The position numbers were made by a program, and so were the translations under genes. 64,000 nt of DNA from a virus (taxonomy: Duplodnaviria > Caudoviricetes), in IMG/VR virus record IMGVR_UViG_3300009776_000003, positions 6,708 through 70,707 of that record. The stretch is one strand, 5' to 3'. This document shows, piece after piece, positions 1-52,686 of this stretch. The stretch's first letter is position 1; the number at the start of each line of letters is the position of its first letter. The notes under the pieces are model-generated. The model saw nothing but the letters and a program-made list of their open reading frames with translations. It was not told the origin of the DNA and searched no databases.

Positions 1-323
1 ATCTGGATGTTCTCTCGCTCGCTTCCTCCACCGTCTTGGAACTCTCTGATGTGTTGCGCTTCGAGCGTTTGGCCTCTAGGCAGTTCGCCTTCGAGTCTTC
101 CGCAAAACTCGCAGTAGCCTCGACTGTACTTTTTCACTAGATCGCGATGTGCTTTTGGTCTCCTGTATTTTGTTGCTTCACTGTCAGGCTTTCCCATAAA
201 CCGGATGTAGTTTCCGCATGATCCGCAATCAACGCGAGCGTAATGTGGCTTGCAATCCAGTAGGGTTACGATGTGTGGTCCATAGTTTCCGCAGCACTTG
301 CAGTTCTCAAAATGGGATTCCAT
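1..323 (-). CDS. HNH endonuclease with N-terminal Zn-ribbon (partial, runs off the window)
   Basis: Not in the ORF track. Manual translation: MESHFENCKCCGNYG...DCGSCG...YCEFCGRLEGELPRGQTLEAQHIREFQDGGGSERENIQI, matching the HNH pattern CxxC...LExxH...GG...N. The start overlaps the stop of the rep gene. Confidence 0.7.
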   Translation of the reverse strand, partial: MESHFENCKCCGNYGPHIVTLLDCKPHYARVDCGSCGNYIRFMGKPDSEATKYRRPKAHRDLVKKYSRGYCEFCGRLEGELPRGQTLEAQHIREFQDGGGSERENIQ

Positions 324-1275
324 CTCCATCCTCGTCGTTTGAAACGACTAGGCGTCCTCTACCGTTGCCATCGCTTCCAAAGCGAGGTTGTTGTGGTAAC
401 TTGTACTCAGAGCGGACTTCGTCCTCAGTTGGGAAGAAATCCTTGGTTGGCGTCGGCTGCTTTCCAACCGGCCTTCTGTTCCACGCAGCCGGAGACTCCT
501 CCCACCTCCGCTGGTTAAGGAAGGTAGAGGCGTGGCAGGCGTACCCTCGGCGGACATCATCAGATTCCGCGTAGATTTTGACCGCCTCCATGATCTCGGC
601 CACCGATGCGGTCTTGATGGCCTTCAACCACGCGCTGAATGCGGTAGGCTTTTTGACGCGGCCATGTTCTGGATAGATTTTCCAGAAGGCTGTGAAGTCG
701 TCGGCATACTCCAAATTGGAGTATCTTCCTTTCCCCTTCACGCGCTCCTTTGGTTGGTTATGGTCTGGTTCAGGTCTGGTCTGGTAGGCAGAGTTTTCAT
801 GGAGGTTTTGTGGAGGTTCTGTGGAGGCATGATCCTCCTCTATCATACCAGACTTTCTGGGGGGAACTCCGTTCCAGAACGTAAGTCCAAGCCTTGTAAG
901 CTTTTCCCTCCACACATTGTCTGCGTGAATGTGGATGTTGTGGATGGCGAGGTATACGTCACCCTCCACTCGGTCTAGGAAACCAGCCTCGATTAGGGCT
1001 GGTATCATACCTAGTATGTTACCTGGTATCATGCTAGGTATGTTACTTGGTAGGATACCTGGTATCTTACCTAGGGCGATTTCGACCGGATGACCGTACC
1101 ATCCTACGCCCCTTTCTATTGCCTTGTCACCCCAACTTCCTACGTCCCCTTGTGGGGCGTACTTATACGCCCAGTGCAGAAGTGATTCAACAAGTCCGAC
1201 CGCACAGTAGACTGGCATGTCAAGGAGCGTCGCCAGTTTTAAGAACTTCGGATGGTCCATGGCGTCCCTCTTCAT
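307..1275 (-). CDS. Phage replication initiator (replisome organiser)
   Basis: N-terminus MDHPKFLKLA..L...VGLVESLLHW, a QTRPEP linker and a C-terminal FTAFWKIYP...KK..AF.AW...HASTFLNQRRWE domain are typical of phage initiators. AAGGA RBS before the ATG at 1275. Lies in the replication module. Confidence 0.8.
   Translation of the reverse strand: MKRDAMDHPKFLKLATLLDMPVYCAVGLVESLLHWAYKYAPQGDVGSWGDKAIERGVGWYGHPVEIALGKIPGILPSNIPSMIPGNILGMIPALIEAGFLDRVEGDVYLAIHNIHIHADNVWREKLTRLGLTFWNGVPPRKSGMIEEDHASTEPPQNLHENSAYQTRPEPDHNQPKERVKGKGRYSNLEYADDFTAFWKIYPEHGRVKKPTAFSAWLKAIKTASVAEIMEAVKIYAESDDVRRGYACHASTFLNQRRWEESPAAWNRRPVGKQPTPTKDFFPTEDEVRSEYKLPQQPRFGSDGNGRGRLVVSNDEDGDGIPF
1001..1072. repeat. Six tandem 12-bp units GGTAT(C/G)(A/T)TACCT inside the initiator gene; probable ori iterons
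   Basis: ggtatcatacct/agtatgttacct/ggtatcatgcta/ggtatgttactt/ggtaggatacct/ggtatcttacct; the consensus unit is a GGTA-N4-TACC dyad. Confidence 0.75.
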
Positions 1276-1934: not shown

Positions 1935-2759
1935 TCACTGTCCTTTCGCAAAGAGTTGATCCCACAGCGCGGCACTTCCACGCTCGTAGGGAATTGGGTC
2001 AGAGAGCTTACGCGACTTGGCCCACCAGCTTGGCATCTCGGTGGGGTAGATGGTCCTGGTTCCGCCACCCTTGGCCTTGCCATCTTCGACGTACTGATCG
2101 AATGCGACGAACAGCAGGTGATCCACCCATTCCTTGACGCGGTGGCGCACTGAGTTTTTGCCAGACGGTGGAGACTGGAGGCGAGGCTCGTACCTGATCC
2201 AGTCGTCGCCTGCTGGATTGGGGACGGTGGTGACGCAGTCATGGCAAACGCAGACGACGTTCTTTCCGCTGCGAATCACCGCATCGAGATCTTGGAGCAG
2301 TTCGAGGAACGACTTGTAGACATGGGTCATTCCCTTTCCGAAGCCGAAGTCCTCGATGTTGGAGACCTTATGCCCCTTTTCATGGGGCACATTCTCGACC
2401 ACCCACTGGATCGCCATATCTTCGGCTCTGGTCAGAGAGTCGATGACGACGGCGGTGAACTGTTCCAGCAGCGTCCGGTCTTGGAGCACCGCTCGCAGCT
2501 CGCCCCAAGTGGTCGGCTGCACTCTGGAGACGTTGAGGAACTTGCTGCCATCTTCGAGGTCGATGATCAAAGCGCCGGTCAGCAGTGACGCCAGTTCGGT
2601 CTTGCCGACACCGCCGGTTCCGTAGAGGAGGACGCGCTGGACGCCAGCGTTGATTCCCTTAGAAATCGTCAGCTTGTTCGTCTCCGCAGGCTGCTGTGCA
2701 GGCTTGCTGTTGGGTTTCATCGGTGGCGGCGCCATTGGACGCGGCGGCGAGATTGCCAT
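1935..2759 (-). CDS. Sak4-like AAA ATPase (AAA_24) single-strand annealing protein
   Basis: Walker A RVLLYGTGGVGKT, Walker B VVIDSLT and GFGKG motif; sits between the exonuclease and SSB genes. Confidence 0.85.
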   Translation of the reverse strand: MAISPPRPMAPPPMKPNSKPAQQPAETNKLTISKGINAGVQRVLLYGTGGVGKTELASLLTGALIIDLEDGSKFLNVSRVQPTTWGELRAVLQDRTLLEQFTAVVIDSLTRAEDMAIQWVVENVPHEKGHKVSNIEDFGFGKGMTHVYKSFLELLQDLDAVIRSGKNVVCVCHDCVTTVPNPAGDDWIRYEPRLQSPPSGKNSVRHRVKEWVDHLLFVAFDQYVEDGKAKGGGTRTIYPTEMPSWWAKSRKLSDPIPYERGSAALWDQLFAKGQ

Positions 2760-3807
2760 TGGATAACTCCGTATGGGCTGTTGGGGAAATGAAAAACCCT
2801 TCAGGAAGATCATCTTCCGTTGGGTCGAAGTTTCTGGAACAAAGGTCAAAGTAGGTGCAGAACGAGCAGGTGTCTTTTCCTACCGTCCTGTACCAGCGAT
2901 CATGGAGGTGGGCATCAGCCATCGTTCGCTGGATGTCCCACAATTCCTGCTCGAACTGCTGGAGATCGCCATCGAGCCGAGGGATCTCCTGACGCGCGAA
3001 GTAGTAGGTCGGTCTGGCGCCGATGTCATCTACCAGTTTCTGCGCCCACTCTTCATCCTTCATGGTGCGGTTGAGCACCCTCCATCCCTTCGCCGGATCA
3101 CCGACCTGACGAGGCTTTCCAGCGGCTGTGTAGACTCGCTCACCATGCTCGTCTACGACGATCTTGAGTCCATCGTCATCGAGGATGGGGATGGGCGTGG
3201 CTGAGATGGTTGGCTTGCGGCAAACATCGTAGATTACGGTGTCTACTGGATAGCCGAGCTCGCGAGCCGCTAGGATGTAAAGGCTGACTTGTGGGTCCAT
3301 CCGCAGTCGCTTCCAGAGCGTGGAGTCGCTGTCGAGAGACTCGCCAAGCAGCTTGTGCTCCATGATGGCTAAGCGGCCATCTGGCAACTGGACGATGCCG
3401 TCAATCTTGCCAGCCAACATCCAGTTCACAGTTGGTCGGCCAGTCGCTGGATTACGCAGCGGCAAGCAGAACTCCTGCTCAGCCTTCAGATACTGGATGC
3501 CATCTGCTGCCCAGTACCAAGCGTAGCCGCTCAGTAGCGATGCCAGCGTGTAGGCTTCCTGTCGCCACTCTTGAAGCTCCATGGTGTCTGGAGTGGCGAG
3601 TGGGTTGTAGAGATCCCAGATAATCTTGGTGGCGCCCTCTTGGTCTTGGAAGACGGCCAGATGTTCCAGCGCCTCATGCCAGTTCGAGCCAAGTCTCAGT
3701 GCTTTGGCATCGACCGTCTTGCGAAGTCGCTGGTGGTAGCTGTACCAGTATCGCTTCCTGCAAGACTGGAACGCCAATTTAGACGAGTGTGTGAGAAGGC
3801 TAATCAC
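2659..3807 (-). CDS. PD-(D/E)XK exonuclease (RecB/AddB/Cas4-like, Fe-S type)
   Basis: SCRKRYWY, LAGKIDGIV...IMEHKL, QVSLY and terminal CSFCTYFDLC cysteines. GTG start after GGAGGAGG. Confidence 0.85.
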   Translation of the reverse strand: MISLLTHSSKLAFQSCRKRYWYSYHQRLRKTVDAKALRLGSNWHEALEHLAVFQDQEGATKIIWDLYNPLATPDTMELQEWRQEAYTLASLLSGYAWYWAADGIQYLKAEQEFCLPLRNPATGRPTVNWMLAGKIDGIVQLPDGRLAIMEHKLLGESLDSDSTLWKRLRMDPQVSLYILAARELGYPVDTVIYDVCRKPTISATPIPILDDDGLKIVVDEHGERVYTAAGKPRQVGDPAKGWRVLNRTMKDEEWAQKLVDDIGARPTYYFARQEIPRLDGDLQQFEQELWDIQRTMADAHLHDRWYRTVGKDTCSFCTYFDLCSRNFDPTEDDLPEGFFISPTAHTELSNGNLAAASNGAATDETQQQACTAACGDEQADDF

Positions 3808-3970
3808 TGCCGACCTCCTCCGTAAGCTCGCGTCGAACAATCGGCACATCGCCGTTTGCTCGGACTCCGATCCGCACCCTATCGTGATGGATGGCAAGGA
3901 CAACAATTTCGATGTCCCTGTCGTCGCCGATCAGGATGCTTTCCTTCAGTCTTCGAGTTAAAACCAACAT
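3800..3970 (-). CDS. csrA: Carbon storage regulator CsrA homologue (56 aa, missed by the ORF track)
   Basis: Manual translation MLVLTRRLKESILIGDDRDIEIVVLAIHHDRVRIGVRANGDVPIVRRELTEEVGSD closely follows the CsrA consensus. Confidence 0.9.
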   Translation of the reverse strand: MLVLTRRLKESILIGDDRDIEIVVLAIHHDRVRIGVRANGDVPIVRRELTEEVGSD

Positions 3971-4008
3971 AGAAGTCCCTTCTAGCGCATACCGCTAGAA
4001 GAAAACTG

Positions 4009-4191
4009 CTAGTCGGTAGCGCTGTCGGCTGTTCTTCGGATCGTTATTTCTTTGGGCGCATCGATCCTGATTTGCGCTCGTCCGCTGCGGACGGTTGTGA
4101 AAGAGATGACGACCTCGCGGTCGCCGCTAGGCTGGGGCGGTATTCGGAGGACGACTACGTCGCCTTCGCGCCTTGAGATAATGAGCCCCAT
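4009..4191 (-). CDS. csrA: Second, divergent CsrA-like protein
   Basis: MGLIISRREGDVVVLRI...AQIRIDAPKEITIRR retains LxxxRRxGD and APKExxIxR. Confidence 0.75.
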   Translation of the reverse strand: MGLIISRREGDVVVLRIPPQPSGDREVVISFTTVRSGRAQIRIDAPKEITIRRTADSATD

Positions 4192-4584
4192 GTTTCACCT
4201 GCTTGCTGGGCGGATGTCTCCTTGTGTGCTGGTCGGTTTCCCTTCGGCATCTCCCAGATGGCCGATCAGTAGTAATGCGGCTATCCCATAGCCGGAACGT
4301 CTTGCTCTAACAACGCACTCGGTGCGCTAGTGCTCAAAGGGCCAGCAACGTCATGCTGCTGGCGAGGCGTCACTGCCTTAACGAACCGAACCTCACTGCT
4401 CGGCGAACTTTGAAGTTGGGAGGTGCAGCGCTTTTGCGCCATCTCTGCAACCACATGCAGGATGCCGCTCAGACTCGTTCGCTCGCACTGCTTGAAGACG
4501 CGAACCACGCTCGGCTGCTTGAAGCGAGAGTCAAAAGCAGCGTTCTGGACGATGTCTGCGCCAGCGGGAGTCATGATCACGTTC

Positions 4585-4728
4585 CTAATAAGCCATAAAT
4601 TCCAAGATGAGAATGTATCCAAAGTACGCGGTAGCCAGCACCGCGAGGGTACGGAGCACCACGAAGATGGTCCTCATTGGAGAGTCTCCAGAAGCGGAGG
4701 AAGAGGTAACAGCGTTCTTGCCGTTCAT
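4585..4728 (-). CDS. Small putative membrane protein
   Basis: First ORF after the leftward promoter; hydrophobic stretch IFVVLRTLAVLATAYFGYILILEFMAY. Confidence 0.35.
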   Translation of the reverse strand: MNGKNAVTSSSASGDSPMRTIFVVLRTLAVLATAYFGYILILEFMAY

Positions 4729-4796
4729 GATCGCCTCACTGCGTATCCTCTGAGGTCGATTGACATCCATCAATCGCGAGCCTCAGTGTGGACGAT

Positions 4797-4824
4797 ATTC
4801 TAGCAGATCGTCAGTGGTTGTCAA
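4797..4824 (-). promoter_or_regulatory. Leftward sigma70-like promoter
   Basis: TTGACA-16 bp-TAGAAT on the minus strand, upstream of the csrA/replication operon. Confidence 0.65.
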
Positions 4825-4887
4825 CAGGCATTAACAAATATTTTTCTTCGCTCCGCAAGCCATTAGCGTATCTTTACTTAGGATGCC

Positions 4888-4916
4888 TTGACTTCAGCCG
4901 ATGTAAGTCCTAATGT
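4888..4916 (+). promoter_or_regulatory. Rightward sigma70-like promoter
   Basis: TTGACT-17 bp-TAATGT upstream of ORF 4938 and the integrase. Confidence 0.6.
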
Positions 4917-4937
4917 TATGACGCGGAGGGAAGCATT

Positions 4938-5270
4938 ATGAGAAACAAAGAGTTCGTGCCCCAGAGTCCAGAGACTCTGGAGGTCGTACTGTCTCGCATC
5001 GAGTACTACAGCGGAGTGATCGAGAATTGCGTGAAGGCGATGAGGGATCGCAAGATTGAGTTGATCGAAGTCAGCCACTTCAAGTCGGTAGGCCGAATGA
5101 TGATGGAGTTCAAGCGTTTCACCTCCTCAGTTCAGGAAGCGCTAGACAAGGAGTTGGAGCGCATTGGAATGTTCGGAGGCGGCGGTAACGATCCTGGTAA
5201 CGAGTCGGTCGAAAAACCGGCCATCAATGGCACCAAGTTGGTACAGCGCAAGAAGCGTAAGTTGAGCTAA
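4938..5270 (+). CDS. Hypothetical protein (helical, basic C-terminus)
   Basis: GGAGGGA RBS and coding-like sequence; no family recognised. Confidence 0.6.
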   Translation: MRNKEFVPQSPETLEVVLSRIEYYSGVIENCVKAMRDRKIELIEVSHFKSVGRMMMEFKRFTSSVQEALDKELERIGMFGGGGNDPGNESVEKPAINGTKLVQRKKRKLS

Positions 5271-5298
5271 GTCAACAGTTTACGGAATGAATGTTTCC

Positions 5299-5341
5299 TT
5301 TGCACGCAGGAGGTTGCCAGTTCGATCCTGGTCGGCTCCAC
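5299..5341 (+). other. attP core: 3' half of tRNA-Ala(TGC)
   Basis: TTTGCAC anticodon loop, GCAGG, GAGGT, T-arm GCCAG-TTCGATC-CTGGT and acceptor GGCTCCA. The 5' half is absent. Directly upstream of the integrase, with phage genes on both sides. Confidence 0.85.
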
Positions 5342-5346
5342 TAAAC

Positions 5347-5371
5347 TAACTTCTTTCGGCGAAAGGACTTG
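5347..5371. promoter_or_regulatory. Putative integrase-binding palindrome TAACTTCTT-N7-AAGGACTTG next to attP
   Basis: Imperfect 9-bp inverted arms with a 7-bp spacer abutting the tRNA fragment; similar copies at 43.5-44.4 kb. Confidence 0.55.
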
Positions 5372-5428
5372 CGACACCGACCGGACCAATCGAACTGCCC
5401 CTCCGCAGAACGTGGTAACGATTGGTAT

Positions 5429-6523
5429 ATGGTACTTTCGTACAGGCGTCGGCCAGATCGCAACACTGCCTTCTGCGAGTATCGCGGAGAGCGAATCCAC
5501 TTTCGCGGCAAGTACGGCTCGGCTGAATCGCTGGCCACTTACGAGCGATTCTGCCAAGCGGTAGCCGATGGCGACGCGGCAACTATACGGCGAATCTCGC
5601 TTTCCAAGACCGCGAAGCCGATGACGGTCGGTAGGCTCATCGACCGCTATCTGGAGTATGCTAAAGGCTACTACAGCTATGGAGAATACCACAACGTCCT
5701 GGCGGCTACGGCGCCGCTCAAAAGGCTCTGCGGTAACGACGCGGTAACGGATTTCGGTCCCATCAGGCTCAAGCATGTCCGCGAGGCTGGAGTCACCGGA
5801 TCGTGGCTCAAGCGGCCAGAGGATGCCGGTCGCCGTCCATGGTCCAGAACCACTGCGAACAAGTACGCCAAGATCCTGATCCGCATGTTCCGTTGGGGAG
5901 CCGAGGAGGAGCTGTTTCCCGCTAGCGTCGCCGCCGCCTTGGAGGTGGTCCGCAGCCTGCGGAAAGGTAAAACAGTTGGCGCAGAGGGGCAGAAAGTGTC
6001 CCCTATCGCTCAGAGCGTCGTAGACGCCACGCTGCCGTCCATGTCGCCGCAGGTGGCTGATATGGTCCAGATCCAGCTTCTGGCCGCCATGAGGCCACAA
6101 GGCGTTTATATGATGCGTCCATGCGACATCGACCGCAGTGGGGTGGTCTGGCTCTATGTGCCGGTCCAGCACAAGCAGAGCCATCTTGATATGGTCAAGA
6201 TCATCTGCCTCGGACCCAAGTGCCAGCAGATTTTGCTACCATATCTGGATCGCAACCCAGAGCAGTGGTGCTTTATAGGTCAGAAAGGTAATCGATTTAA
6301 TCACAATTCCTACATGCTGGCGATTCATCGAGCTTGCAAGCGAGCAGGCATTCCGCGCTGGAGCCCAAACCGGCTGCGCCACAGCGCCGCGACGCAGGTG
6401 GCAGCGAGGTACGATCTGGACTCAGCGCGTTGTCTGCTTGGTCATGGCAGCGTGACCACTACCATGATCTACGCGCAGCGAGACTTGGAGACGGCCTCCA
6501 AGATCGCTTTGGAGATTGGCTGA
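5429..6523 (+). CDS. int: Tyrosine recombinase / phage integrase
   Basis: Catalytic motifs MRPQG (R), NRLRH (xxR plus H) and LLGH...TTMIY (H, Y). N-terminal GKYGSAESLATYERF. Adjacent to attP. The ORF is open from 5369. Confidence 0.93.
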   Translation: MVLSYRRRPDRNTAFCEYRGERIHFRGKYGSAESLATYERFCQAVADGDAATIRRISLSKTAKPMTVGRLIDRYLEYAKGYYSYGEYHNVLAATAPLKRLCGNDAVTDFGPIRLKHVREAGVTGSWLKRPEDAGRRPWSRTTANKYAKILIRMFRWGAEEELFPASVAAALEVVRSLRKGKTVGAEGQKVSPIAQSVVDATLPSMSPQVADMVQIQLLAAMRPQGVYMMRPCDIDRSGVVWLYVPVQHKQSHLDMVKIICLGPKCQQILLPYLDRNPEQWCFIGQKGNRFNHNSYMLAIHRACKRAGIPRWSPNRLRHSAATQVAARYDLDSARCLLGHGSVTTTMIYAQRDLETASKIALEIG

Positions 6524-7075: not shown

Positions 7076-7442
7076 GTACACTGGTGTTAGCTGGAGCCCT
7101 TACATCGGAAAGTGGACGGTCACGATAGGTCGCAAAGGTCGGAGCGTCAACTGCGGTTACTACGAGGACGCTGCCGAGGCCGCGATGATCTCGGACTGGC
7201 TGTCGTACCACATCCCTCGCGGCAACACCGGAAGGCCGACCAGATGGAACTTTCCCAACCGAATTGCCGAGCGAGAGTCGCCCACACCGCCTAGTGGACT
7301 CGCGCTGGAATACGCCATTTTGTATCTACGCAAGTTTGGAATTGTCTATGACCCCAATCCCCCAAGAGCCGCCAACGATCCCCCAACTGATCAGCAACAA
7401 GAATACGACCCAACACTGTTGCGATTCAATCCCTACTTCTGA
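7035..7442 (+). CDS. AP2-domain DNA-binding protein
   Basis: KYTGVSW...GKWTVTI...G.SVNCGYYEDAAEAA matches the AP2 pattern; GTG start chosen. Confidence 0.75.
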   Translation: MKRKTKPKPEGVPKYTGVSWSPYIGKWTVTIGRKGRSVNCGYYEDAAEAAMISDWLSYHIPRGNTGRPTRWNFPNRIAERESPTPPSGLALEYAILYLRKFGIVYDPNPPRAANDPPTDQQQEYDPTLLRFNPYF

Positions 7443-7608
7443 ACCGCGTCCAGTTGGTGATCGCATCATCATTCGCCTCGCTGGCGATAGCACATTCGAG
7501 AAGGGGATGTGCGAGATTCAGTTCATGAGCGATGGAGAGTTGCGCATTACGGCACTTCGATCCATGGAAATTCTCATGGTGGATGAAGTGCATAGGGCGA
7601 TCCAATGA
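7348..7608 (+). CDS. Hypothetical protein, possibly a very divergent CsrA fold
   Basis: RPVGDRIIIRL...EIQF...ELRITA.RSMEILM.DE loosely parallels the CsrA beta-strand pattern. Confidence 0.35.
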   Translation: MTPIPQEPPTIPQLISNKNTTQHCCDSIPTSEPRPVGDRIIIRLAGDSTFEKGMCEIQFMSDGELRITALRSMEILMVDEVHRAIQ

Positions 7609-37363: not shown

Positions 37364-38080
37364 ATGGATACATCTAATTGGCCAAAGGTTTCCTGCTTGT
37401 GTATCGCAGGAAAGTCACGCTACAACGCCACTGTACTCTTGCCAGTGGCGGTCCAGTGCTTTATCGAGCAGGACTATCCGAACAAAGAGCTGGTCGTTGT
37501 TTACGACGACAACTGGAAAGCTGTCGGCAGTGTGAGCCAGCGGTTCGACTGTAAGGATGTCCGCTGGCATGTCACCGACAAGGCGCCACTTGGAGCGCTG
37601 AGGAACAAGTCGATAGAGTTCGCCAGTTCTGGTCTGCTGGTGCAGTGGGATTCGGACGACGCATTCCATCCTCACTACGTTTCTGTGATGGTTCGCACCC
37701 ACCTGCAATCGCAGCTCCCAGTCTTCCTCAAGCGCCAACTGGTTTACGACCTGCAACGAGATGTTGCCGCCGTTCGCAGTTTTCCAAAGACTTGCATTCA
37801 TGGAGCCAACCTCCTGCCCAGAGGTGACTGGCGATACCCAGAGATTGGCGCCACCGAGGATACGGAGATCCTCAAGCACTTTCCGCATGTAGCTTTGCTC
37901 GATGCGCCAGAGTTGTACCTGCGGATGTTTACAGGCGACAACACTTGGGATCGCCTCCATGTCATGCGAGAAGCCTCCGAATGGCCCAGTGGTACTTGGA
38001 TGATACCTGAGAGGGCGATAGAGTGGGTTAGGGAAGTCACCTCTCGCTACTCTTCTTCCGATACTTCGGTTTCTGCCTAA
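37364..38080 (+). CDS. GT2 family glycosyltransferase (lone plus-strand gene)
   Basis: KVSCLC, AVQCFIEQDYPNKELVVVYD, LGALRN and VQWDSDD motifs. Confidence 0.85.
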   Translation: MDTSNWPKVSCLCIAGKSRYNATVLLPVAVQCFIEQDYPNKELVVVYDDNWKAVGSVSQRFDCKDVRWHVTDKAPLGALRNKSIEFASSGLLVQWDSDDAFHPHYVSVMVRTHLQSQLPVFLKRQLVYDLQRDVAAVRSFPKTCIHGANLLPRGDWRYPEIGATEDTEILKHFPHVALLDAPELYLRMFTGDNTWDRLHVMREASEWPSGTWMIPERAIEWVREVTSRYSSSDTSVSA

Positions 38081-38185
38081 TCACCTCCCTGATCTTCTCG
38101 ATAGATAGATCATCAATGTCGCGCTCGATGATCTTGATCATCTTTCTGGCGACAGTGCGGAGGGTTGGTTTGGGTGGTTTCTTTT

Positions 38186-38431
38186 TCATTTGGTCGCCTC
38201 TCCAAACATCACGCCAGCAAGCCCACTGATCGCGTCTAAGTGGCGATCCTTGCAGTGCTGGCATTCTCGATTGAACAGGAAGTTGCCGCAGCTTGTGCAG
38301 TGCGTTGAATGCACCCACAGTTCGCGGTCATCCAGTTTGCGGTCGTTGACAACGTCTCTGACTCCCTTGCAGTACTGGCAGACGCTGCGCATCGATCTGG
38401 TCTTTTGACCGCAGAATCGGCAATGGGCCAT
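38186..38431 (-). CDS. Multi-Zn-ribbon small protein
   Basis: CRFC/CQYC/CTSC/CQHC; GGAGGTGA RBS. Confidence 0.65.
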   Translation of the reverse strand: MAHCRFCGQKTRSMRSVCQYCKGVRDVVNDRKLDDRELWVHSTHCTSCGNFLFNRECQHCKDRHLDAISGLAGVMFGEATK

Positions 38432-38602
38432 AAGTCACCTCCAATAGTTCTCACCTCAAAACCCCACCACCCCAGCCGCCTAGCGTGAGGTGCGCGCTGG
38501 CGGCATGTTGCGGCCCTATCCGCTAGGGGTGGTGGGTAAATACGTTAGCTAAAGCCCCACCTGCCGGTCGCGAACCGGCTGATCGCGTGGGGGTGGGTGG
38601 GT

Positions 38603-38839
38603 TTAGTGAGACTCGTACTCAGAGGATCGGTCAACAATCAAACGCTTTCCATTGTAGGTCTGATTGCCGCGAATCTTGCCGCAAGTGCAGTCCTTTTGGT
38701 AGCACAGTTCACGCCGCGCTCTCTTGAGCTGCCCAGCGGTTGGATAGATGACGCACTCGTTGTGAATGTGCGATAGCACCTCACAACGTAGCGTTACGCT
38801 GGTATTGTGGAAGTCGTTTCTAAGCGTTACCAGTGGCAT
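38603..38839 (-). CDS. Hypothetical early protein
   Basis: GGAGGTGA RBS; bounded by hairpins. Confidence 0.7.
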   Translation of the reverse strand: MPLVTLRNDFHNTSVTLRCEVLSHIHNECVIYPTAGQLKRARRELCYQKDCTCGKIRGNQTYNGKRLIVDRSSEYESH

Positions 38840-38948
38840 AGCTTCACCTCCAAGCTATCTTGCCCAGCGGTTCCGCGCTGGTCGGTGGTGCCGATAGCGG
38901 CTACCTCACATACGCAGGCTGGCTAGACTGCGTATGGTGGGGTGGTCG

Positions 38949-39134
38949 CTATAAGACCGGCCGTCCGTAGTAGTCAGGAACATTAGTGTCCCATTTCCTC
39001 TCGCAGTTTTCGCAGTAGACTTCGCGCGGAGGATGTACAGTCGAGTCTACGACCGGATGGGTAAATTGCGCGTGCCCACACACTGGGCATTCCCAAGAGT
39101 AGGCTGGAGTAAGACGTACAGGTTCGCGCCGCAT
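38949..39134 (-). CDS. Small Zn-ribbon protein
   Basis: WECPVCG...CENC; its stop TAG is the first triplet of the hairpin element. Confidence 0.6.
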   Translation of the reverse strand: MRREPVRLTPAYSWECPVCGHAQFTHPVVDSTVHPPREVYCENCERKWDTNVPDYYGRPVL

Positions 39135-39138
39135 TGGA

Positions 39139-39540
39139 TCACGCCTTTCTGCTGTTGGCGACTTCATGCCACAGTTCGGTATCGCCATGGATAAACCTTG
39201 CCGTCTGCGTATCGACCCAGTCGTCGTGCTCTGATCCGGTCTGTACAAGGTCGTAGACGATCTCGCCAACTGCGCGGCTGGTATCTCCGTCTAGGTTCTG
39301 GAGATACACCCTCATGTGAGTAAACATCTCTAGCCACATGCGGCGCAGTTCGTCAAAATGGACTTGTGGGGTCATTGGCTCATCCTCTTTTAGTGGGCTT
39401 ACTGGGCTTGCTGGAATGCTGCGCCGTTGGCGCAGTTCGCCGATTGCGTGAACGACGTTTCCGAATGGTCCGCCACATCCGCGATATTCCGCGAATTTGG
39501 CTACCATTGCATCTAGCTCGGTGTCTGTGAGGATTTTCAT
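39139..39540 (-). CDS. Hypothetical protein
   Basis: GGAG RBS; coupled to the upstream ORF. Confidence 0.55.
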   Translation of the reverse strand: MKILTDTELDAMVAKFAEYRGCGGPFGNVVHAIGELRQRRSIPASPVSPLKEDEPMTPQVHFDELRRMWLEMFTHMRVYLQNLDGDTSRAVGEIVYDLVQTGSEHDDWVDTQTARFIHGDTELWHEVANSRKA

Positions 39541-39722
39541 TGATACTCGATCTCCACTGCATTGTGTAATTGCCGCAAGACATGCAAGATTTCTCTTGCT
39601 CTCTCGCGATCCTTGCAAGATTTCCGCATTGCCTGAACATCGATCGCGTAATCGATCTCTCCTGAGTCTTGCCCGCTGCCGCGAATGACAATCGCGCACA
39701 GTACGGTGTCTGATGTTTTCAT
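39537..39722 (-). CDS. Hypothetical protein
   Basis: GAAAGGAAGGA RBS; overlapping stop/start. Confidence 0.55.
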   Translation of the reverse strand: MKTSDTVLCAIVIRGSGQDSGEIDYAIDVQAMRKSCKDRERAREILHVLRQLHNAVEIEYQ

Positions 39723-39979
39723 GCTGTCCTTCCTTTCCATGGGTTGTTGGTGTGAAAACTTGTAGCGATAGCCTGCACAGTGCGGTATCGCTTGGTGTCG
39801 GTTTGGCCCCTACGTTCCAGTAGTCCCATCACGCGAAGTGCGCGCTTGTAGGGGGTGTCGTAGTGGTATTCGCCTTGATCGAAAAACGCCTCGCGCAATA
39901 CTCCTCTACCGCGCTCATTTAGGCCAGTTACGAAAAACTGCTTTCTGCAACGGACCACTTTGGGGAATAGTCTTGCCAT
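39719..39979 (-). CDS. Hypothetical early protein
   Basis: GAGGTG RBS after the hairpin. Confidence 0.65.
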   Translation of the reverse strand: MARLFPKVVRCRKQFFVTGLNERGRGVLREAFFDQGEYHYDTPYKRALRVMGLLERRGQTDTKRYRTVQAIATSFHTNNPWKGRTA

Positions 39980-40076
39980 TTTGCACCTCGGTTCTAAGGG
40001 TTAAAGTAATCTAGCGGCTACCTCGGACGCGCGGAGGGTGAGGGCCGCGCGTAATGGGGTGGTCGCTAGGGGGCTG

Positions 40077-40544
40077 CTACTTTTCAACCCCTTCCTTTCT
40101 ACGTTCGTAGCCCTTGCACCCTTCGCAATCGCCTAGCCAGTTATTGGCGATCTCGTCGTAATCTGCCCTCTCGATTGCAGATTGCAACAGGTTGCCATAC
40201 AGTGATACTCCATCGAGCGGATTGCCGTCTTCTACGCTGTCTCTGATTGTTTTCGCTAGGTTGTATCTAGCGACTTGGGATCGCGTGAGAACCTCATTAG
40301 GTTCAGCGGTATCCCACGCTGTTCTGGCTGTATCCCAAGCCCAGCGGTTGCTGCCTTCCTCATCCATGATCCAGAGATTTACGCACCAAGTTTCGTAGTT
40401 CGTCCAGCCATTGTATGTGGTGTCCTCTGGTTTGCGCGCTTCTGCCAGAGCATTCACTAGCGCGTTGTGTTCCTCGCGCAGTTCGCCGCTTTCGCGCTTG
40501 CCGATAACGCGATTAGGCCATAGCCAAGATTGAAAGGATGACAT
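40077..40544 (-). CDS. Phage early protein with YNGWTNYETW motif
   Basis: YNGWTNYETWCVNLWI is a recurrent phage DUF motif; GAGGTG RBS. Confidence 0.75.
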   Translation of the reverse strand: MSSFQSWLWPNRVIGKRESGELREEHNALVNALAEARKPEDTTYNGWTNYETWCVNLWIMDEEGSNRWAWDTARTAWDTAEPNEVLTRSQVARYNLAKTIRDSVEDGNPLDGVSLYGNLLQSAIERADYDEIANNWLGDCEGCKGYERRKEGVEK

Positions 40545-40655
40545 ACTTGCACCTCTGCCCAGTGGGGCGTTAGGGGGTTGCTTCTCCGCACACTACCCTT
40601 ATGCTGCGCTCGCAGCGTAGGGGTAGGGCGCGGAGGTGGCGCCCTAGGGGGTAGG

Positions 40656-40820
40656 TTATCTATTGGCCCTTAAGGCCAGTAGGAATGCCAGACGGCCAAT
40701 CTCTTGCGACACAACTTCCTCGGCGCGTTCCAGTTTCAGGCCGCCGCTGACGGCTTTGCGGATTGCAGAGTAAATTGCCTTGCGGAGCGTGTATTCTATC
40801 TTAGCAATCGGCTTGTTCAT
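40656..40820 (-). CDS. 54-aa hypothetical protein (missed by the ORF track)
   Basis: MNKPIAKIEYTLRKAIYSAIRKAVSGGLKLERAEEVVSQEIGRLAFLLALRANR; GAGG RBS. Confidence 0.6.
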   Translation of the reverse strand: MNKPIAKIEYTLRKAIYSAIRKAVSGGLKLERAEEVVSQEIGRLAFLLALRANR

Positions 40821-40843
40821 TTCTGCCTCTTGGGGTAGGGTGG

Positions 40844-41587
40844 TTATTCTTCAATGTACGCGAAGTATCCTTGTTCCCTCAGTTCAAAACAGCGCGCTTG
40901 GGCCGATTCGTCAGAGTAGAAAGTTTCGGTATTGTCGCCGAGATCGTTCCAGTGGATTACATAGGCGATAGCGTATTGTGCGATATCTTCCCAGTCGATG
41001 GATTCGGCGACGCGTTCCCAATGGATACACATGCCACTTCCATCTTCATACCAGTATTCGCAAGCATTGTCGGCTACCTCTGAAAATAAATCCCACATGG
41101 CGCCGCTGTCTGGCCAATTGAATTCTGCCTCAAAGCGCTTCTCTAAGTGGCGCTCAAGGTCTCTGCGGTAGCAATTGTCGAAAGTCTCTTGAGATTCCTC
41201 ATATTGAATCTCTGAATAGCGCTCCTCATCTAGGATCGGATGGTCGTTCAGCCGATCATGCGCTTCCATCCATGCGCGGAAAGCATCAGTAATCTGGCCA
41301 TTGCGATAAACGCGAATGCTGTACCCATCCACCCATCCGCAAGCCCAATGGCCATGGTGCTCTGGAAAGCAATCAGGGTCATCGCCATCCATGAATGGTT
41401 CCATGGTATCGGCGAGCGCTTCAGCATTGGCGCGATCAAGTGGGCCGCTGTCACGATTGCAAGTGTACACAATGGTCCATTGGTCCGGATCTTCCGGCCT
41501 ATCGTGCCAGCCGAAGCTTTCGAAATGGCGCCAGTTACCAGCGGCTTCGCGCGCTGCGCTTTCGAGATCGGAATGGAGAGTTGTCAT
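40844..41587 (-). CDS. Acidic phage early protein (NRDS...HWACGWV...HPILDE family)
   Basis: Motif set recurrent in phage early regions; GAGGTG RBS. Confidence 0.75.
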   Translation of the reverse strand: MTTLHSDLESAAREAAGNWRHFESFGWHDRPEDPDQWTIVYTCNRDSGPLDRANAEALADTMEPFMDGDDPDCFPEHHGHWACGWVDGYSIRVYRNGQITDAFRAWMEAHDRLNDHPILDEERYSEIQYEESQETFDNCYRRDLERHLEKRFEAEFNWPDSGAMWDLFSEVADNACEYWYEDGSGMCIHWERVAESIDWEDIAQYAIAYVIHWNDLGDNTETFYSDESAQARCFELREQGYFAYIEE

Positions 41588-41686
41588 AATCACACCTCAC
41601 AGAACTAGGGGTTTAGGGAAAACCAGCCACCACTACGCTAGCGCTAGGCCAGCGCAGAGGTGGGCGGTTTGGCGCCGCCCTAGGGA

Positions 41687-42067
41687 TTACTGCTTTGCTG
41701 TTTCGTAGGGATACGGATTGCTTTCTCTGTCAGCATACCAGCGCTTAAAGGCTTGCGATTGTTCGTCTGTCCTGTATTGGCAGACGGTTATTTCCTCAAA
41801 GTCCTGTTGGTTAGCAACTGCGCTGTCATGATGCAGGTTTCCTGTTGCCGTTAGTGGCTCAGAACAAGCGAAACGAGAGATCGTCAAACCCAACCCTGCA
41901 TTTCCGTCTCTGGCGGTAATCTTGATTGCCCTATTGCCGTCTGCGGATCTAATCCAGATCTCCGGCTGGCCGTTAGGCCAAAGGATAACTTGGGCGCCGT
42001 TGAACAGCGCAGACGGATTGTCGAATAGTTCGGCATACTGCTTTTTTGTTCTGCGGTATTTGGCCAT
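41687..42067 (-). CDS. Hypothetical early protein
   Basis: GGAGGTG RBS; bounded by hairpins. Confidence 0.7.
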   Translation of the reverse strand: MAKYRRTKKQYAELFDNPSALFNGAQVILWPNGQPEIWIRSADGNRAIKITARDGNAGLGLTISRFACSEPLTATGNLHHDSAVANQQDFEEITVCQYRTDEQSQAFKRWYADRESNPYPYETAKQ

Positions 42068-42150
42068 AATCGCACCTCCGAGAATAGGGATAGGGAACAC
42101 AACCGTACACACTCTAGCCCTTGGGAAAGGGCTAGGGGGTGGAAGGGGTG

Positions 42151-42666
42151 TTAAGCTATCCGACCACTAAACGCATGAATGTTGCGTGTGCCGACATGAG
42201 GATTAGAACAGCCCCTTATGATCCTGTCTACTTTGCCATAGCATCTTGGCCAATCAATGGTTGTACCGTCGATAGTGAGCTGAGCTGGTGAGATCTCAGG
42301 ATAGCCGTCTTTCTCCCAGTCTCGCTCGGCTGAGGTGAATTGTTCATTCTGCTCTAATCCGCAGGCGGTTCCGTTCTCCAGAATGAGGATAGTGTGACAT
42401 CCCTCATGATAGAGCGCGATAGGGGCTATTTGCCGAAGTGCATCGCAAGATAGCATTACGCTTGCGACATGAGGGGCCATTGTGTCGCCAGTGTTCCAGT
42501 TTTCGGAAAGCTTAACGTCTTCTGGGAGACCATAGGCATCGCAGAAGATACGCTTACCCTTTCGAGTAAGATCGGTAAGAATGCGAAAGCCAAGATTGTC
42601 GGCCTCACCTGTAAGCAGATCGAAACCGTATGCTCCGAGATCTAGCAAGCAACTAATGGTCTTCAT
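42151..42666 (-). CDS. Hypothetical early protein
   Basis: GAGGTG RBS; LLTGEADNLGFRILTDL motif; bounded by hairpins. Confidence 0.7.
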   Translation of the reverse strand: MKTISCLLDLGAYGFDLLTGEADNLGFRILTDLTRKGKRIFCDAYGLPEDVKLSENWNTGDTMAPHVASVMLSCDALRQIAPIALYHEGCHTILILENGTACGLEQNEQFTSAERDWEKDGYPEISPAQLTIDGTTIDWPRCYGKVDRIIRGCSNPHVGTRNIHAFSGRIA

Positions 42667-42739
42667 GGTACACCTCAAGTGATAGGGAGTAAACGCCACA
42701 CATAGAGACGCCAGCGTACTGGCGTCGTTAGTGGGGCGG

Positions 42740-42931
42740 TTACAGTCTAGGCACCTCTGAGAACAGGACCACGTTGCCTTCAATAGCCACTACGCCGCCG
42801 CGCTCGATTGCTGCGTGTGTGGCCGCTTCAAGCGTAGGATAACGGCCACAAAGGGCAGATGAGTTTTGAATGTTCTGGAGAATGTAAGGGTTGGCTGCCT
42901 TCCATCGTTCCACGTCGGATCTGGTAGTCAT
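42740..42931 (-). CDS. First gene of the small-gene array, hypothetical
   Basis: GAGGTG RBS; MTTRSDVERW... Confidence 0.6.
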   Translation of the reverse strand: MTTRSDVERWKAANPYILQNIQNSSALCGRYPTLEAATHAAIERGGVVAIEGNVVLFSEVPRL

Positions 42932-43199
42932 CTGAGCACCTCGCTTGATAGGGGATAGGGCAAACATGCTTATAAGATATCGGACTTTGGCCAGCGAATC
43001 AAGAGCATAAAGACAGACAAAGATAGATGTTGACAGGCATTCAGAGAATTTTGGCGACGCAAAGCTATTGGCGGCAATCGCTTGGAAGTATTCCGAGAAA
43101 ATTCTTGGATTGAAAATGGCGAGAGACAGCGGACACTCGGTATTCCAGTAATGATGGAGGATTGATTGACGCAAGGCAATGTCCGTTAACGGATTGTGT

Positions 43200-44766
43200 G
43201 GGCTTGACTGAAATTGCCAAGTTTGTTGTGGCAATTAGGTGGGGGATGAGAGGCGCGAGAGACAGTATATATGGTCGGTGCGAGAGACGGCGCCGAGAGC
43301 GCTCAGAGCTGGGATCAGTCTCGGAGGCGACCAGGCCGAGACCGAGACCGGATCAGCCGAGACTGATCAGGTGAGACTGGTGGGGAGCATCGCTGGCGAG
43401 AGGTGGCGGCGGATGGCTGGCGAGAGGTGGCTAGCGACGCATGCGCAGGCGCGATAGAGATACTGTCAAGCGACGATTTGGCGCAAGTCGTTGCGGGATA
43501 AGGAGTTGTGGTCGATGATAGCGTGGTTGTCTACACTTGTAGACGACGTAAGTCGTTGTGGCGTAAGGGGTTACGGTTCGAATTTTACCCCAAAAATACC
43601 GAATTTCGGCCGTCGGATACAATCCTCAATAGCCTTTTTCCCTTACAGGGGGGGCGGCAACGTCGCAACCTCTTGCGGCGCAGCCACTTGCGCCGACGCG
43701 CCGACGACCCCGCACGCCGCCACCCATCCCCCGCAGCCCCCCATCGCCGATCCGACCGTCCTTTTGGATACCTTACCACTCGAATATACGCCACCACCCT
43801 CAAGTGTATCATTTTGATACACTCTTCTGGGTGGTACCCATCATATATGCTGGCCAACTGTATCAAAATTGAACACTTCTGGCGTCACCACCCCTTCGAG
43901 CGCCATCACTTTGACTACACTTCGCCCTCCCTCACCTCCTAGATCCCTTCCCCTCGAAATACGCGCCTCCCACATCGCCTACGAGCCTCACCAGAGCCAC
44001 TTCTCCCTCACCCCCATAATTCCACCCTCGGCCTTCCCTAGCCCCTCCGCGCTCGCTGTGGCCTCACTCAGCCTCGCACTATCGCCACTTGCCGTACCCA
44101 CCACTGGAACACTCGTACCAAAAACTGGACCGTCTCTCTGGGATACCTTACCGCCGAAATATACAAAGTGATCATTCGCCTCACCTACCTTACCAACTTA
44201 GTCATCAATTCCCAAAACAGGAATCTCAAAACGTTGCCACCAAAGGACTTACGAAAACCTTGACAAAAAACAAGCATACACTTGTACAGGAGTGTATACA
44301 TTTTCTATACACCCCCCTACCTCGCCATAACTCTATTCCCCACAACCACTTGCGCCGATTTTTCGCCTTTTCAAACTGACCGTCAAAAAAAATAGTTGCA
44401 GTTTTTGAGTGACTATGGTACGCTGCGAGCAGCCGCTTAAGCGACTTAGCTGCGAGCATCCTCAGCAGTCTAGCTTATCGGCCAACTTCGCAGTCACGCT
44501 ACTACGCTATACAGCACTCTCCCGCTGAGGCGTGTCTGCTTAAGCATCGAAGCGAGTACTTCGCGAGATGCGCTTCCGCAGTCAATGCGAAGCTATTGCT
44601 TACTAGCGCTAGGAACTAAGCGCTCAGACTTAGGTACTTAAGCGCTCGAAGTCACGCCAACTGGCTCGGTGACGCTTCGCTTCAACTTGGTGCGGTAGTC
44701 TTCTTCAAAGCGAAGCGCAAAGCACAGCGAGCGGGAGCGAGCGGGTCGAGGCGAGTAGCGTGAGCG
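43200..44766. other. Large non-coding control region (candidate packaging, terminus or origin region)
   Basis: No credible ORFs. The plus strand is G-rich before a G7 run (43648-43654) and C-rich after it. Contains multiple dyads and direct repeats. Confidence 0.65.
43484..44352. repeat. Five copies of the 9-7-9 palindrome related to the attP-adjacent site
   Basis: 43484-43508, 43549-43573, 43666-43690, 44227-44251 and 44328-44352. Confidence 0.65.
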
Positions 44767-51900: not shown

Positions 51901-52219
51901 CCCCACCTCCAATCGCCGCCACCAACGCCTCGCAGATTTGGCGTGGGGTGCAACATAAGATATCTACCACAAACCACGATAGCCCATTGTCGGCAGCGCG
52001 AACGCACCGCCGCTTGTCTAGCGCCATCGAAAACTTGAATACGGTTTCTCCGTCCATTTCTCGCAACCGCTCCAGCAACGGCTGGCAGTCGTCGCGGTAC
52101 TTCTGTGGCCACCAAAAACGCTCTCCGTCATCCAGTGTCGCATCGCCGTATTCGTCCGCTGGAATGTATTCCCACCCCATCCACTCCGCGATCTTGGTGA
52201 GGAGTTGTTCGTCGGTCAT
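51896..52219 (-). CDS. Third ABA-sandwich-like protein
   Basis: LLTKIAEWMGW...P....D...LLERL...TPRQICEALVA pattern. Confidence 0.45.
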   Translation of the reverse strand: MTDEQLLTKIAEWMGWEYIPADEYGDATLDDGERFWWPQKYRDDCQPLLERLREMDGETVFKFSMALDKRRCVRAADNGLSWFVVDILCCTPRQICEALVAAIGGGE

Positions 52220-52686
52220 CTCGCTTCCCTCCACAAAAGGACTGCACACACAATGATAGAAACCACACTCGCCAACAGAAACGTCCCAACCACATGGATC
52301 GCTTCGCTCATGAGCACCTCCTGCGAATCCAATCGAGTTCTCGCATGGCTGCGGATCTGAAGTCTTCAGTATGCAACAGAAACTCACCGCACTGCTCGAT
52401 CATCTCTCGCTCCGCATCCGAGAGACTTTCGCTCGGCTCCTTCAGTGAGAAGATGGTGCAGGCTAGCGTAGCGAGCGTGTAGCACTCGCATCCAATGTCC
52501 TTGAGGGATTTGGCTACCGCCAGTGTGGTAGCCGTAGAATCTTGGGATCTGGCTTGGTCGTCGGCCATCACTGCCTCGCTGCTAGAGAGTCGCAATCACT
52601 GCGAACGAATCACCGACATCGATGGTGATTATACAGCGGTGGCTAGACTACTTCAATGGGTAAATGGCCATTTTTGGCCAAAAACA

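Follow-up and report, generated by a model that had tools for sequence, protein, structure and literature searches.

Two adjacent CsrA-family genes, one near-canonical and one divergent, joined by a predicted coupling hairpin in the early operon of a wastewater phage

CsrA ranks among the principal post-transcriptional regulators in bacteria. We analysed two CsrA-family genes that lie side by side in a 64,000-nucleotide stretch of viral DNA (bases 6708–70707 of the 70,707-bp IMG/VR record IMGVR_UViG_3300009776_000003; hereafter the window, to which positions refer unless stated otherwise). The record has direct terminal repeats, is rated complete and contains an integrase; the phage is temperate, with a host that probably belongs to the Phycisphaerae (Planctomycetota). 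Both genes are on the minus strand: a divergent copy of 60 amino acids (csrA2, 4009–4191) is followed by a near-canonical copy of 56 amino acids (csrA1, 3800–3970). An initial annotation, made from the DNA letters, had given both pairs of coordinates exactly, with the strand unstated, and had called one copy near-canonical and the other divergent. A search with the Pfam CsrA family model (PF02599, cut-off 27 bits) agrees with that description, with 67.6 bits for csrA1 (E = 9e-19) and 27.9 bits for csrA2 (E = 2.4e-6). The accompanying remark that csrA1 is missed by the open reading frame (ORF) caller does not hold generally: both proteins are recorded as called genes on five contigs. The start codons are unambiguous, with no alternative start between the upstream stop and the ATG in either gene, and both starts align with position 1–2 of the family profile.

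The near-canonical copy also matches the PHROG family of CsrA-like regulators (phrog_9500, 1.7e-13), and it scores below the NCBIfam equivalog cut-offs for housekeeping CsrA (NF002469 / TIGR00202; 57.5 against 73 and 54.8 against 70.1). Its structural model (pLDDT 83.9) has the expected strands and a helix at residues 47–50 only, the protein being cut after one helical turn. The RNA-pocket positions that we compared across the CsrA/RsmA family (i.e. L2, L4, R6, R/K7, V40, V42, R44, E46 and I/L47) are all kept in csrA1, with a two-residue shift (L2, L4, R6, R7, V42, I44, R46, E48 and L49); every residue known to matter for binding GGA-containing RNA thus appears to be retained. In the beta4–beta5 loop, Asn-Gly-Asp replaces Pro-Lys-Glu. 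The best PDB match of csrA1 is 5DMB, the FliW-bound CsrA of Geobacillus, which fits an origin from a FliW-type CsrA.

The divergent copy is a marginal pass in Pfam and lies below the NCBIfam equivalog cut-off for housekeeping CsrA (18.5 against 73). Searched exhaustively with phmmer, a set of 1.84 billion representatives yielded only two short relatives of csrA2 (48% and 39% identity), which both belong to the Pfam CsrA family and have the same additional loop behind strand beta2; the large proteins at the top of that search were rejected as beta-rich repeat artefacts (e.g. Calx-beta). A profile built from the csrA2 relatives retrieves 1874 CsrA-family proteins, many of the RsmN/RsmF type. AlphaFold models csrA2 with a pLDDT of 86.5, and the 14 PDB chains that match this model best (TM 0.54–0.65) are without exception CsrA, RsmA or RsmE. 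Strands beta1 and beta5 have no partner in the monomer models of the two phage proteins, which is what a swapped dimer would lead one to expect.

The residue-level description of csrA2 in the initial annotation proved accurate when the protein was placed in a 34-sequence alignment: it retains the SRREGD and APKEITIRR motifs, has an insertion and lacks the conserved Glu after the key Arg. The insertion comprises ∼8 residues after beta2 and is modelled as strand and turn (E12–20, E23–35), lengthening the beta2–beta3 hairpin. A Glu-Leu pair two residues past the key Arg occurs in 33 of the 34 sequences and is absent in csrA2 alone. The pocket positions of csrA2 read L3, I5, R7, R8, I49, I51 and R53, followed by Ala55 and Asp56 where the family has E46 and I/L47; the protein ends seven residues past Arg53 with no helix in the model, and there is no frameshift near the 3′ end of the gene that would restore a Glu-Leu ending. 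RsmE cannot do without the Arg6–Glu46 salt bridge, I47A is one of the changes that impair RNA binding most in E. coli CsrA, and R44, V42, I47 and L2/L4 are residues with roles in CsrA (PMC6692469). Judged from its residues and model, csrA2 is a true CsrA-family member with a predicted damaged beta5 edge, because Ala55–Asp56 stand at the positions of the Arg6–Glu46 salt bridge and of I47: it seems to keep the beta1 residues and the key Arg and to have lost the Glu-Ile/Leu edge of the pocket.

Could csrA2 then be a decaying or neutral passenger without function? The marginal Pfam score and the loss of two conserved pocket residues are what such a gene would have, yet its frame is intact, its unambiguous start lies one codon past a stop and its model is confident. 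Moreover, the identical protein is found on five contigs from three sources, the DNA of csrA2 is unchanged in a sludge variant with differing flanks, and translation of csrA1 appears to depend on csrA2 (see below). We regard the passenger explanation as very improbable. The two genes had also been called tandem paralogues. As a statement about recent duplication this fails because BLASTP finds no pairwise alignment between the two proteins; their identity in the family alignment is ∼27% and their nearest relatives differ. Nor does the count of three CsrA ORFs in the initial annotation survive whole: csrA1 and csrA2 exceed the Pfam cut-off, but the third (7348–7608, plus strand) has no match in Pfam, NCBIfam or PHROG. 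It was rejected as a CsrA on its hhalign probability against the CsrA profile (1.9% over 15 columns), and it is a doubtful gene with a poor coding score (0.049 per codon).

We then analysed the junction of the two genes. The csrA2–csrA1 spacer is 38 nt long and is covered by a predicted hairpin (3963–4017, minus strand; −27.9 kcal/mol, z = −5.25 against shuffles) that consists of a 9-bp core and an outer stem. The last two sense codons of csrA2 and its UAG pair with the AUG region of csrA1, while the inner stem hides the csrA1 ribosome site AAGGGA; at this ribosome site, 10 of 10 positions are paired. When the same 61-nt frame was folded round all 96 predicted gene starts of the phage, the csrA1 start region was the most structured (mean −11.6, standard deviation 4.8, next best −20.0). 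This arrangement of csrA2, hairpin and csrA1 is the one typical of translational coupling. We infer that a ribosome reaching the end of csrA2 would melt the 5′ arm of the hairpin and free the csrA1 start, and that csrA1 would be translated mainly by ribosomes fresh from csrA2. The next gene, which encodes a PD-(D/E)XK nuclease (2659–3807, minus strand; 61.4 bits), has a GTG start that overlaps the csrA1 stop (GTGATTAG), and therefore the chain would continue into the nuclease; the nuclease ribosome site GGAGGAGG lies six bases upstream of the GTG, inside the 3′ end of csrA1.

The leader of csrA2 is of a different kind. It occupies 4192–4280 (minus strand) and contains three GGA motifs, one of which is ACAAGGAG ∼30 nt upstream, in front of a GGA-free ribosome site (AGGTGA). 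The leader has no significant structure (z = 0.19) and its GGA count is not above background.

The promoter and the downstream gene order support the earlier placement of the csrA pair at the head of an early replication and recombination operon. A near-consensus, sigma-70-type leftward promoter lies at 4797–4824 (minus strand; TTGACA, 16 nt, TG-n-TAGAAT); with 11 of 12 consensus matches and the extended −10 TG, it is the only such site in 3600–5500. Behind it, csrA2 and csrA1 are the third and fourth genes. They are preceded by orf61 (4585–4770, minus strand), which has a hydrophobic C-terminal half, a coding score of 0.15 per codon and no family over cut-off, and by orf97 (4281–4574, minus strand), which has no Pfam or PHROG match and a poor Atlas model (pLDDT 0.31). 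The nuclease is the fifth gene and is followed by an AAA_24 ATPase (1935–2759, minus strand; 100.5 bits), orf194 as the seventh gene, and a replication initiation protein as the eighth (307–1275, minus strand; phrog_9474 and phrog_270, about 1e-20). Genes 9 and 10 and those further on, beyond the start of the window, include HNH, a DnaB-type helicase (DnaB_C 143 bits) and RusA. The last gene of the leftward arm, also outside the window (L122:35–1828 in genome coordinates, minus strand), encodes a 597-amino-acid protein with weak matches to LAGLIDADG_3 and to papain-like peptidase C1, both near or below cut-off.

The host was predicted from the integration site. The 3′ half of a tRNA-Ala(TGC) gene lies as attP beside the integrase (5300–5345). 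A 32-nt piece of it, from the variable loop to the acceptor end, occurs exactly in only 2 of 185,579 species genomes, i.e. the metagenome-assembled genomes (MAGs) of a Tepidisphaeraceae and a Phycisphaerales member, and in both the match is inside the tRNA-Ala(TGC) gene. This match makes a host in the Phycisphaerae probable. Both candidate host genomes contain two canonical long CsrA genes (∼90 bits in Pfam), one of them directly after fliW, and CsrA is present in 228 of the 251 sampled genomes of the class; the candidate host lineage appears to control CsrA with FliW. No fliW was found in the phage. One candidate host genome (G001) has two extra divergent CsrA paralogues (C80:10105–10281 and C11:1102–1272) with loop insertions after beta2 and non-APKE beta4–beta5 loops that resemble csrA1. 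These copies do not lie in recognisable relatives of this phage, and none of its genes is nearby.

Binding of FliW to CsrA in C. jejuni needs V51 and N55 of CsrA and is abolished by deletion of residues 56–75 (PMC7829508). Host-lineage CsrA carries Ile51 and Asn55. Allowing for its two-residue insertion, csrA1 reaches only as far as the counterpart of residue 54, one short of the Asn position, and neither csrA1 nor csrA2 has the FliW-docking helix with the equivalents of Ile/Val51 and Asn55. We infer that FliW would be unable to hold either phage protein because both end before these docking-helix residues.

Viral CsrA genes are common: a degenerate-pattern scan of IMG/VR gave at least 383 confirmed CsrA stretches, and csrA1 is matched by 19 GenBank phage records, each with a single copy. 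By contrast with the pair described here, a second CsrA-family ORF was found at none of 97 viral CsrA loci from IMG/VR, inspected with a 2.5–4 kb flank on each side, using hidden Markov models that recover both csrA genes in this window; many of these 97 loci are redundant Pseudomonas prophages. Other proteins of this phage have no match at the 97 loci, and a search of GenBank phages with csrA2 came up empty at E ≤ 1. The two viral homologues closest to csrA1 (57–59% identity; L009:2984–3166 and L011:3998–4174) are likewise degenerate past the key Arg, with Asp in place of Glu and no helix, so that trimming of the C-terminus may recur among viral CsrA proteins.

Several studies have yielded metagenomes that contain DNA of this phage, their sources being anaerobic digester, sludge, activated sludge and wastewater. 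The listed sequencing runs with this DNA include no RNA run, which is neutral as to expression. One sludge variant contig has nine differences in the nuclease gene, while both csrA genes and the hairpin are identical. All nine substitutions fall within 73 nt of the nuclease gene (3259–3331), with identical flanks, and this stretch looks like a small recombination patch.

The reading that we favour, at roughly even odds (about 0.5), is that the phage makes two minimal, FliW-blind CsrA proteins early and together, and thereby resets translation. As the csrA1 start is locked in a hairpin that includes the csrA2 stop, both proteins would be made together, early in lytic growth. Minimal CsrA proteins would flood the cell, out of reach of the host antagonist FliW, and by binding GGA leaders on mRNAs of the host, and perhaps of the phage, they would reset translation during takeover. 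Within this scheme, csrA2 would either recognise different RNAs or pair with csrA1.

Several observations weigh against this reading. (i) No related phage with a csrA pair was found: searching IMG/VR through the nuclease gave no relatives, a metagenome scan for csrA2 gave only an RsmN-like and a canonical CsrA in unrelated contexts, and 401 genomes of the host class gave only weak matches to ordinary CsrA. (ii) The host assignment depends on one 32-nt tRNA match. (iii) Coupling and overlap are no proof of joint function, because both are common among unrelated phage genes, and the hairpin between csrA2 and csrA1 also fits a weak terminator pattern. (iv) Possibly csrA2 does not bind RNA in the usual way, because it is less than 1 bit over the Pfam cut-off and has lost two pocket residues. 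(v) Natural variants amount to G40D in csrA1 on one low-depth contig and none in csrA2, and the differences among contigs across the csrA region are too few to measure selection.

The two possible roles of csrA2 lead to different dimers. Each CsrA pocket is formed by beta1 of one chain and beta5 of the other. If csrA1 and csrA2 formed one obligate asymmetric dimer, one pocket would be canonical (beta1 of csrA2, beta5 of csrA1) and the other altered (beta1 of csrA1, degenerate beta5 of csrA2); a dimer of this kind could bind GGA sites singly, with no bridging between two of them, and its target range would be unlike that of the host homodimer. Adjacent genes with structure-based coupling suit partners that are made in proportion, the Glu of the inter-chain salt bridge to Arg6 is missing from csrA2 alone, and the lack of a second copy at the 97 other viral loci indicates that the pair is no routine duplication. 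Against this, csrA1 is coupled to the unrelated nuclease gene too, the ∼27% identity of the two proteins may make their interleaved cores incompatible, and natural heterodimers of CsrA paralogues are undocumented (PMC7366521). On balance we consider an obligate heterodimer rather unlikely.

Alternatively, csrA1 and csrA2 could each form homodimers that act independently on targets of their own, as in the case of RsmA and RsmN/RsmF of Pseudomonas, and their pairing would be operon packing only. The Met-Gly-Leu start of csrA2 and its lack of a C-terminal helix are as in RsmN/RsmF-type proteins, and the differing nearest relatives of the two phage proteins suggest separate acquisitions. However, neither pocket of a csrA2 homodimer would contain the equivalents of Glu46 and Ile47, and the prediction for the insertion of csrA2 is an extended hairpin instead of the RsmN helix. 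Two homodimers are therefore possible, if doubtful; the coupling of csrA1 and the lost Glu of csrA2 weakly favour a mixed dimer over them. The most specific form of the mixed-dimer idea, i.e. an obligate asymmetric csrA1–csrA2 heterodimer enforced by coupling, with one canonical and one re-shaped pocket and invisible to FliW, is unlikely. If true, it would be a natural CsrA heterodimer without precedent, by which a virus overrides the FliW–CsrA partner switch of a planctomycete host.

The csrA pair might instead serve against host defences, by repressing defence genes such as CRISPR-Cas, or poison the host regulator by forming dead heterodimers with host CsrA. RsmA represses three Serratia CRISPR-Cas systems, phage homologues have been proposed as anti-CRISPR-like factors (PMC8450108), and the csrA genes are placed at the operon head for predicted early expression. 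This explanation is nevertheless improbable: there is no link to a defence system in this window. Host CsrA (90 bits) and csrA1 share the fold, but mixed dimers of the two are hypothetical.

We also considered whether the pair, in place of a CI-type repressor, acts on phage leaders (by autoregulation or by sorting early from accessory genes) and spares genes with GGA-less ribosome sites. The initial annotation had pointed to GGA-free GAGGTG ribosome sites in an array at 38–43 kb, and the depletion is real: in this array (38000–43300, minus strand), a GGA lies within 20 nt of the start in 3 of 10 genes, compared with 69 of the 86 genes outside it (Fisher p = 0.002). The GGA-free ribosome site of csrA2 is of the same kind as in the array, while that of csrA1 contains a GGA. 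GAGGTG, however, is a normal Shine–Dalgarno variant, and the link between the GGA-poor ribosome sites of the array and CsrA would be a correlation only. The csrA2 leader offers nothing beyond background GGA, and no known RNA family was found with Rfam and hence no sponge of the CsrB/RsmY type. A GGA-rich stretch at 52039–52238 (minus strand) was rejected as a sponge RNA because it is coding. Two overlapping small minus-strand genes (52218–52310 and 51905–52222) occupy a gap in simple gene calls here; the former encodes a hydrophobic peptide of ∼30 amino acids and the latter a protein of ∼105 amino acids, with its start at ATGA.

The absence of a CI-type repressor, on which the annotation had based its proposal of a lysis/lysogeny switch, stands in part. 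No HTH_3 domain over cut-off and no S24 repressor were found in the phage, and no classical repressor was recognised, Atlas look-ups of orf110 and orf97 (the candidate repressor positions) being uninformative. On the other hand, an imperfect 22-bp palindrome (GACGAT-N10-ATCGTC, 4791–4812) covers the −10 box of the early leftward promoter as a candidate operator. It occurs once in the window, where 0.26 copies are expected by chance; this is not significant by count, and its position alone is suggestive. The palindrome hints at a DNA-binding repressor that went unrecognised, and at ordinary transcriptional repression; the missing CI is therefore weak ground for a switch built on CsrA. Thus, a CsrA-based lysis/lysogeny switch finds little support, and regulation of the phage's own leaders by the pair is improbable.

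Whichever dimers are formed, the locus is a compact natural experiment, in which a canonical copy and a copy with a damaged pocket stand together with a built-in device that would tie translation of csrA1 to csrA2. It allows a clean test of mixed dimers between natural CsrA paralogues, and it raises the question of whether phages evade proteins that antagonise CsrA by shortening the helix at which these dock. It also adds regulatory biology for the phages of Planctomycetota, which are very poorly known. Phage copies of CsrA have been catalogued and hardly studied, Bci being the one functional case that we found.

Finally, we compared the csrA pair with known systems. In an engineered CsrA heterodimer, reportedly made by Mercante et al. 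in 2009, one pocket is dead. It is a laboratory construct and shares with the proposed csrA1–csrA2 heterodimer the concept of one working site. The RsmN/RsmF proteins of Pseudomonas (PDB 4K59 and 4KJI) are like csrA2 in having an insertion between beta2 and beta3, and share with it the N-terminal Met-Gly-Leu start and the lack of a C-terminal helix. Unlike them, csrA2 has an insertion that is predicted to lengthen the hairpin and not to form the RsmN alpha-helix, and it lacks the Glu-Leu after the key Arg that RsmN keeps. The FliW-partnered, ‘ancestral’ CsrA proteins (B. subtilis, Geobacillus 5DMB and C. jejuni) include the best structure match of csrA1 and correspond to the fliW–csrA operons of the candidate hosts, whereas csrA1 and csrA2 stop before the docking helix and the phage is without fliW.

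Closest in setting are the CsrA/RsmA homologues of phages and prophages (PHROG 9500 and 8397), which are likewise small CsrA-domain proteins of temperate phages in the same Pfam family. Known examples are RsmM/Bci of phi297/F116-like phages of P. aeruginosa, Burkholderia DC1 and Vibrio VvAW1, and the prophage protein Bci affects infection, quorum sensing and motility (PMC7546807). The use proposed for these homologues is the same, i.e. manipulation of host post-transcriptional control (PMC8450108, PMC7366521 and PMC7546807), so that phage CsrA genes as such have already been described. They occur in single copy in the 19 GenBank phage records and the 97 IMG/VR loci examined, whereas here two very different, apparently translation-coupled copies are found in a phage with a candidate planctomycete host. 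What is new is the apparently coupled pair of a canonical and a degenerate copy, the trimmed FliW-docking region and the planctomycete setting.

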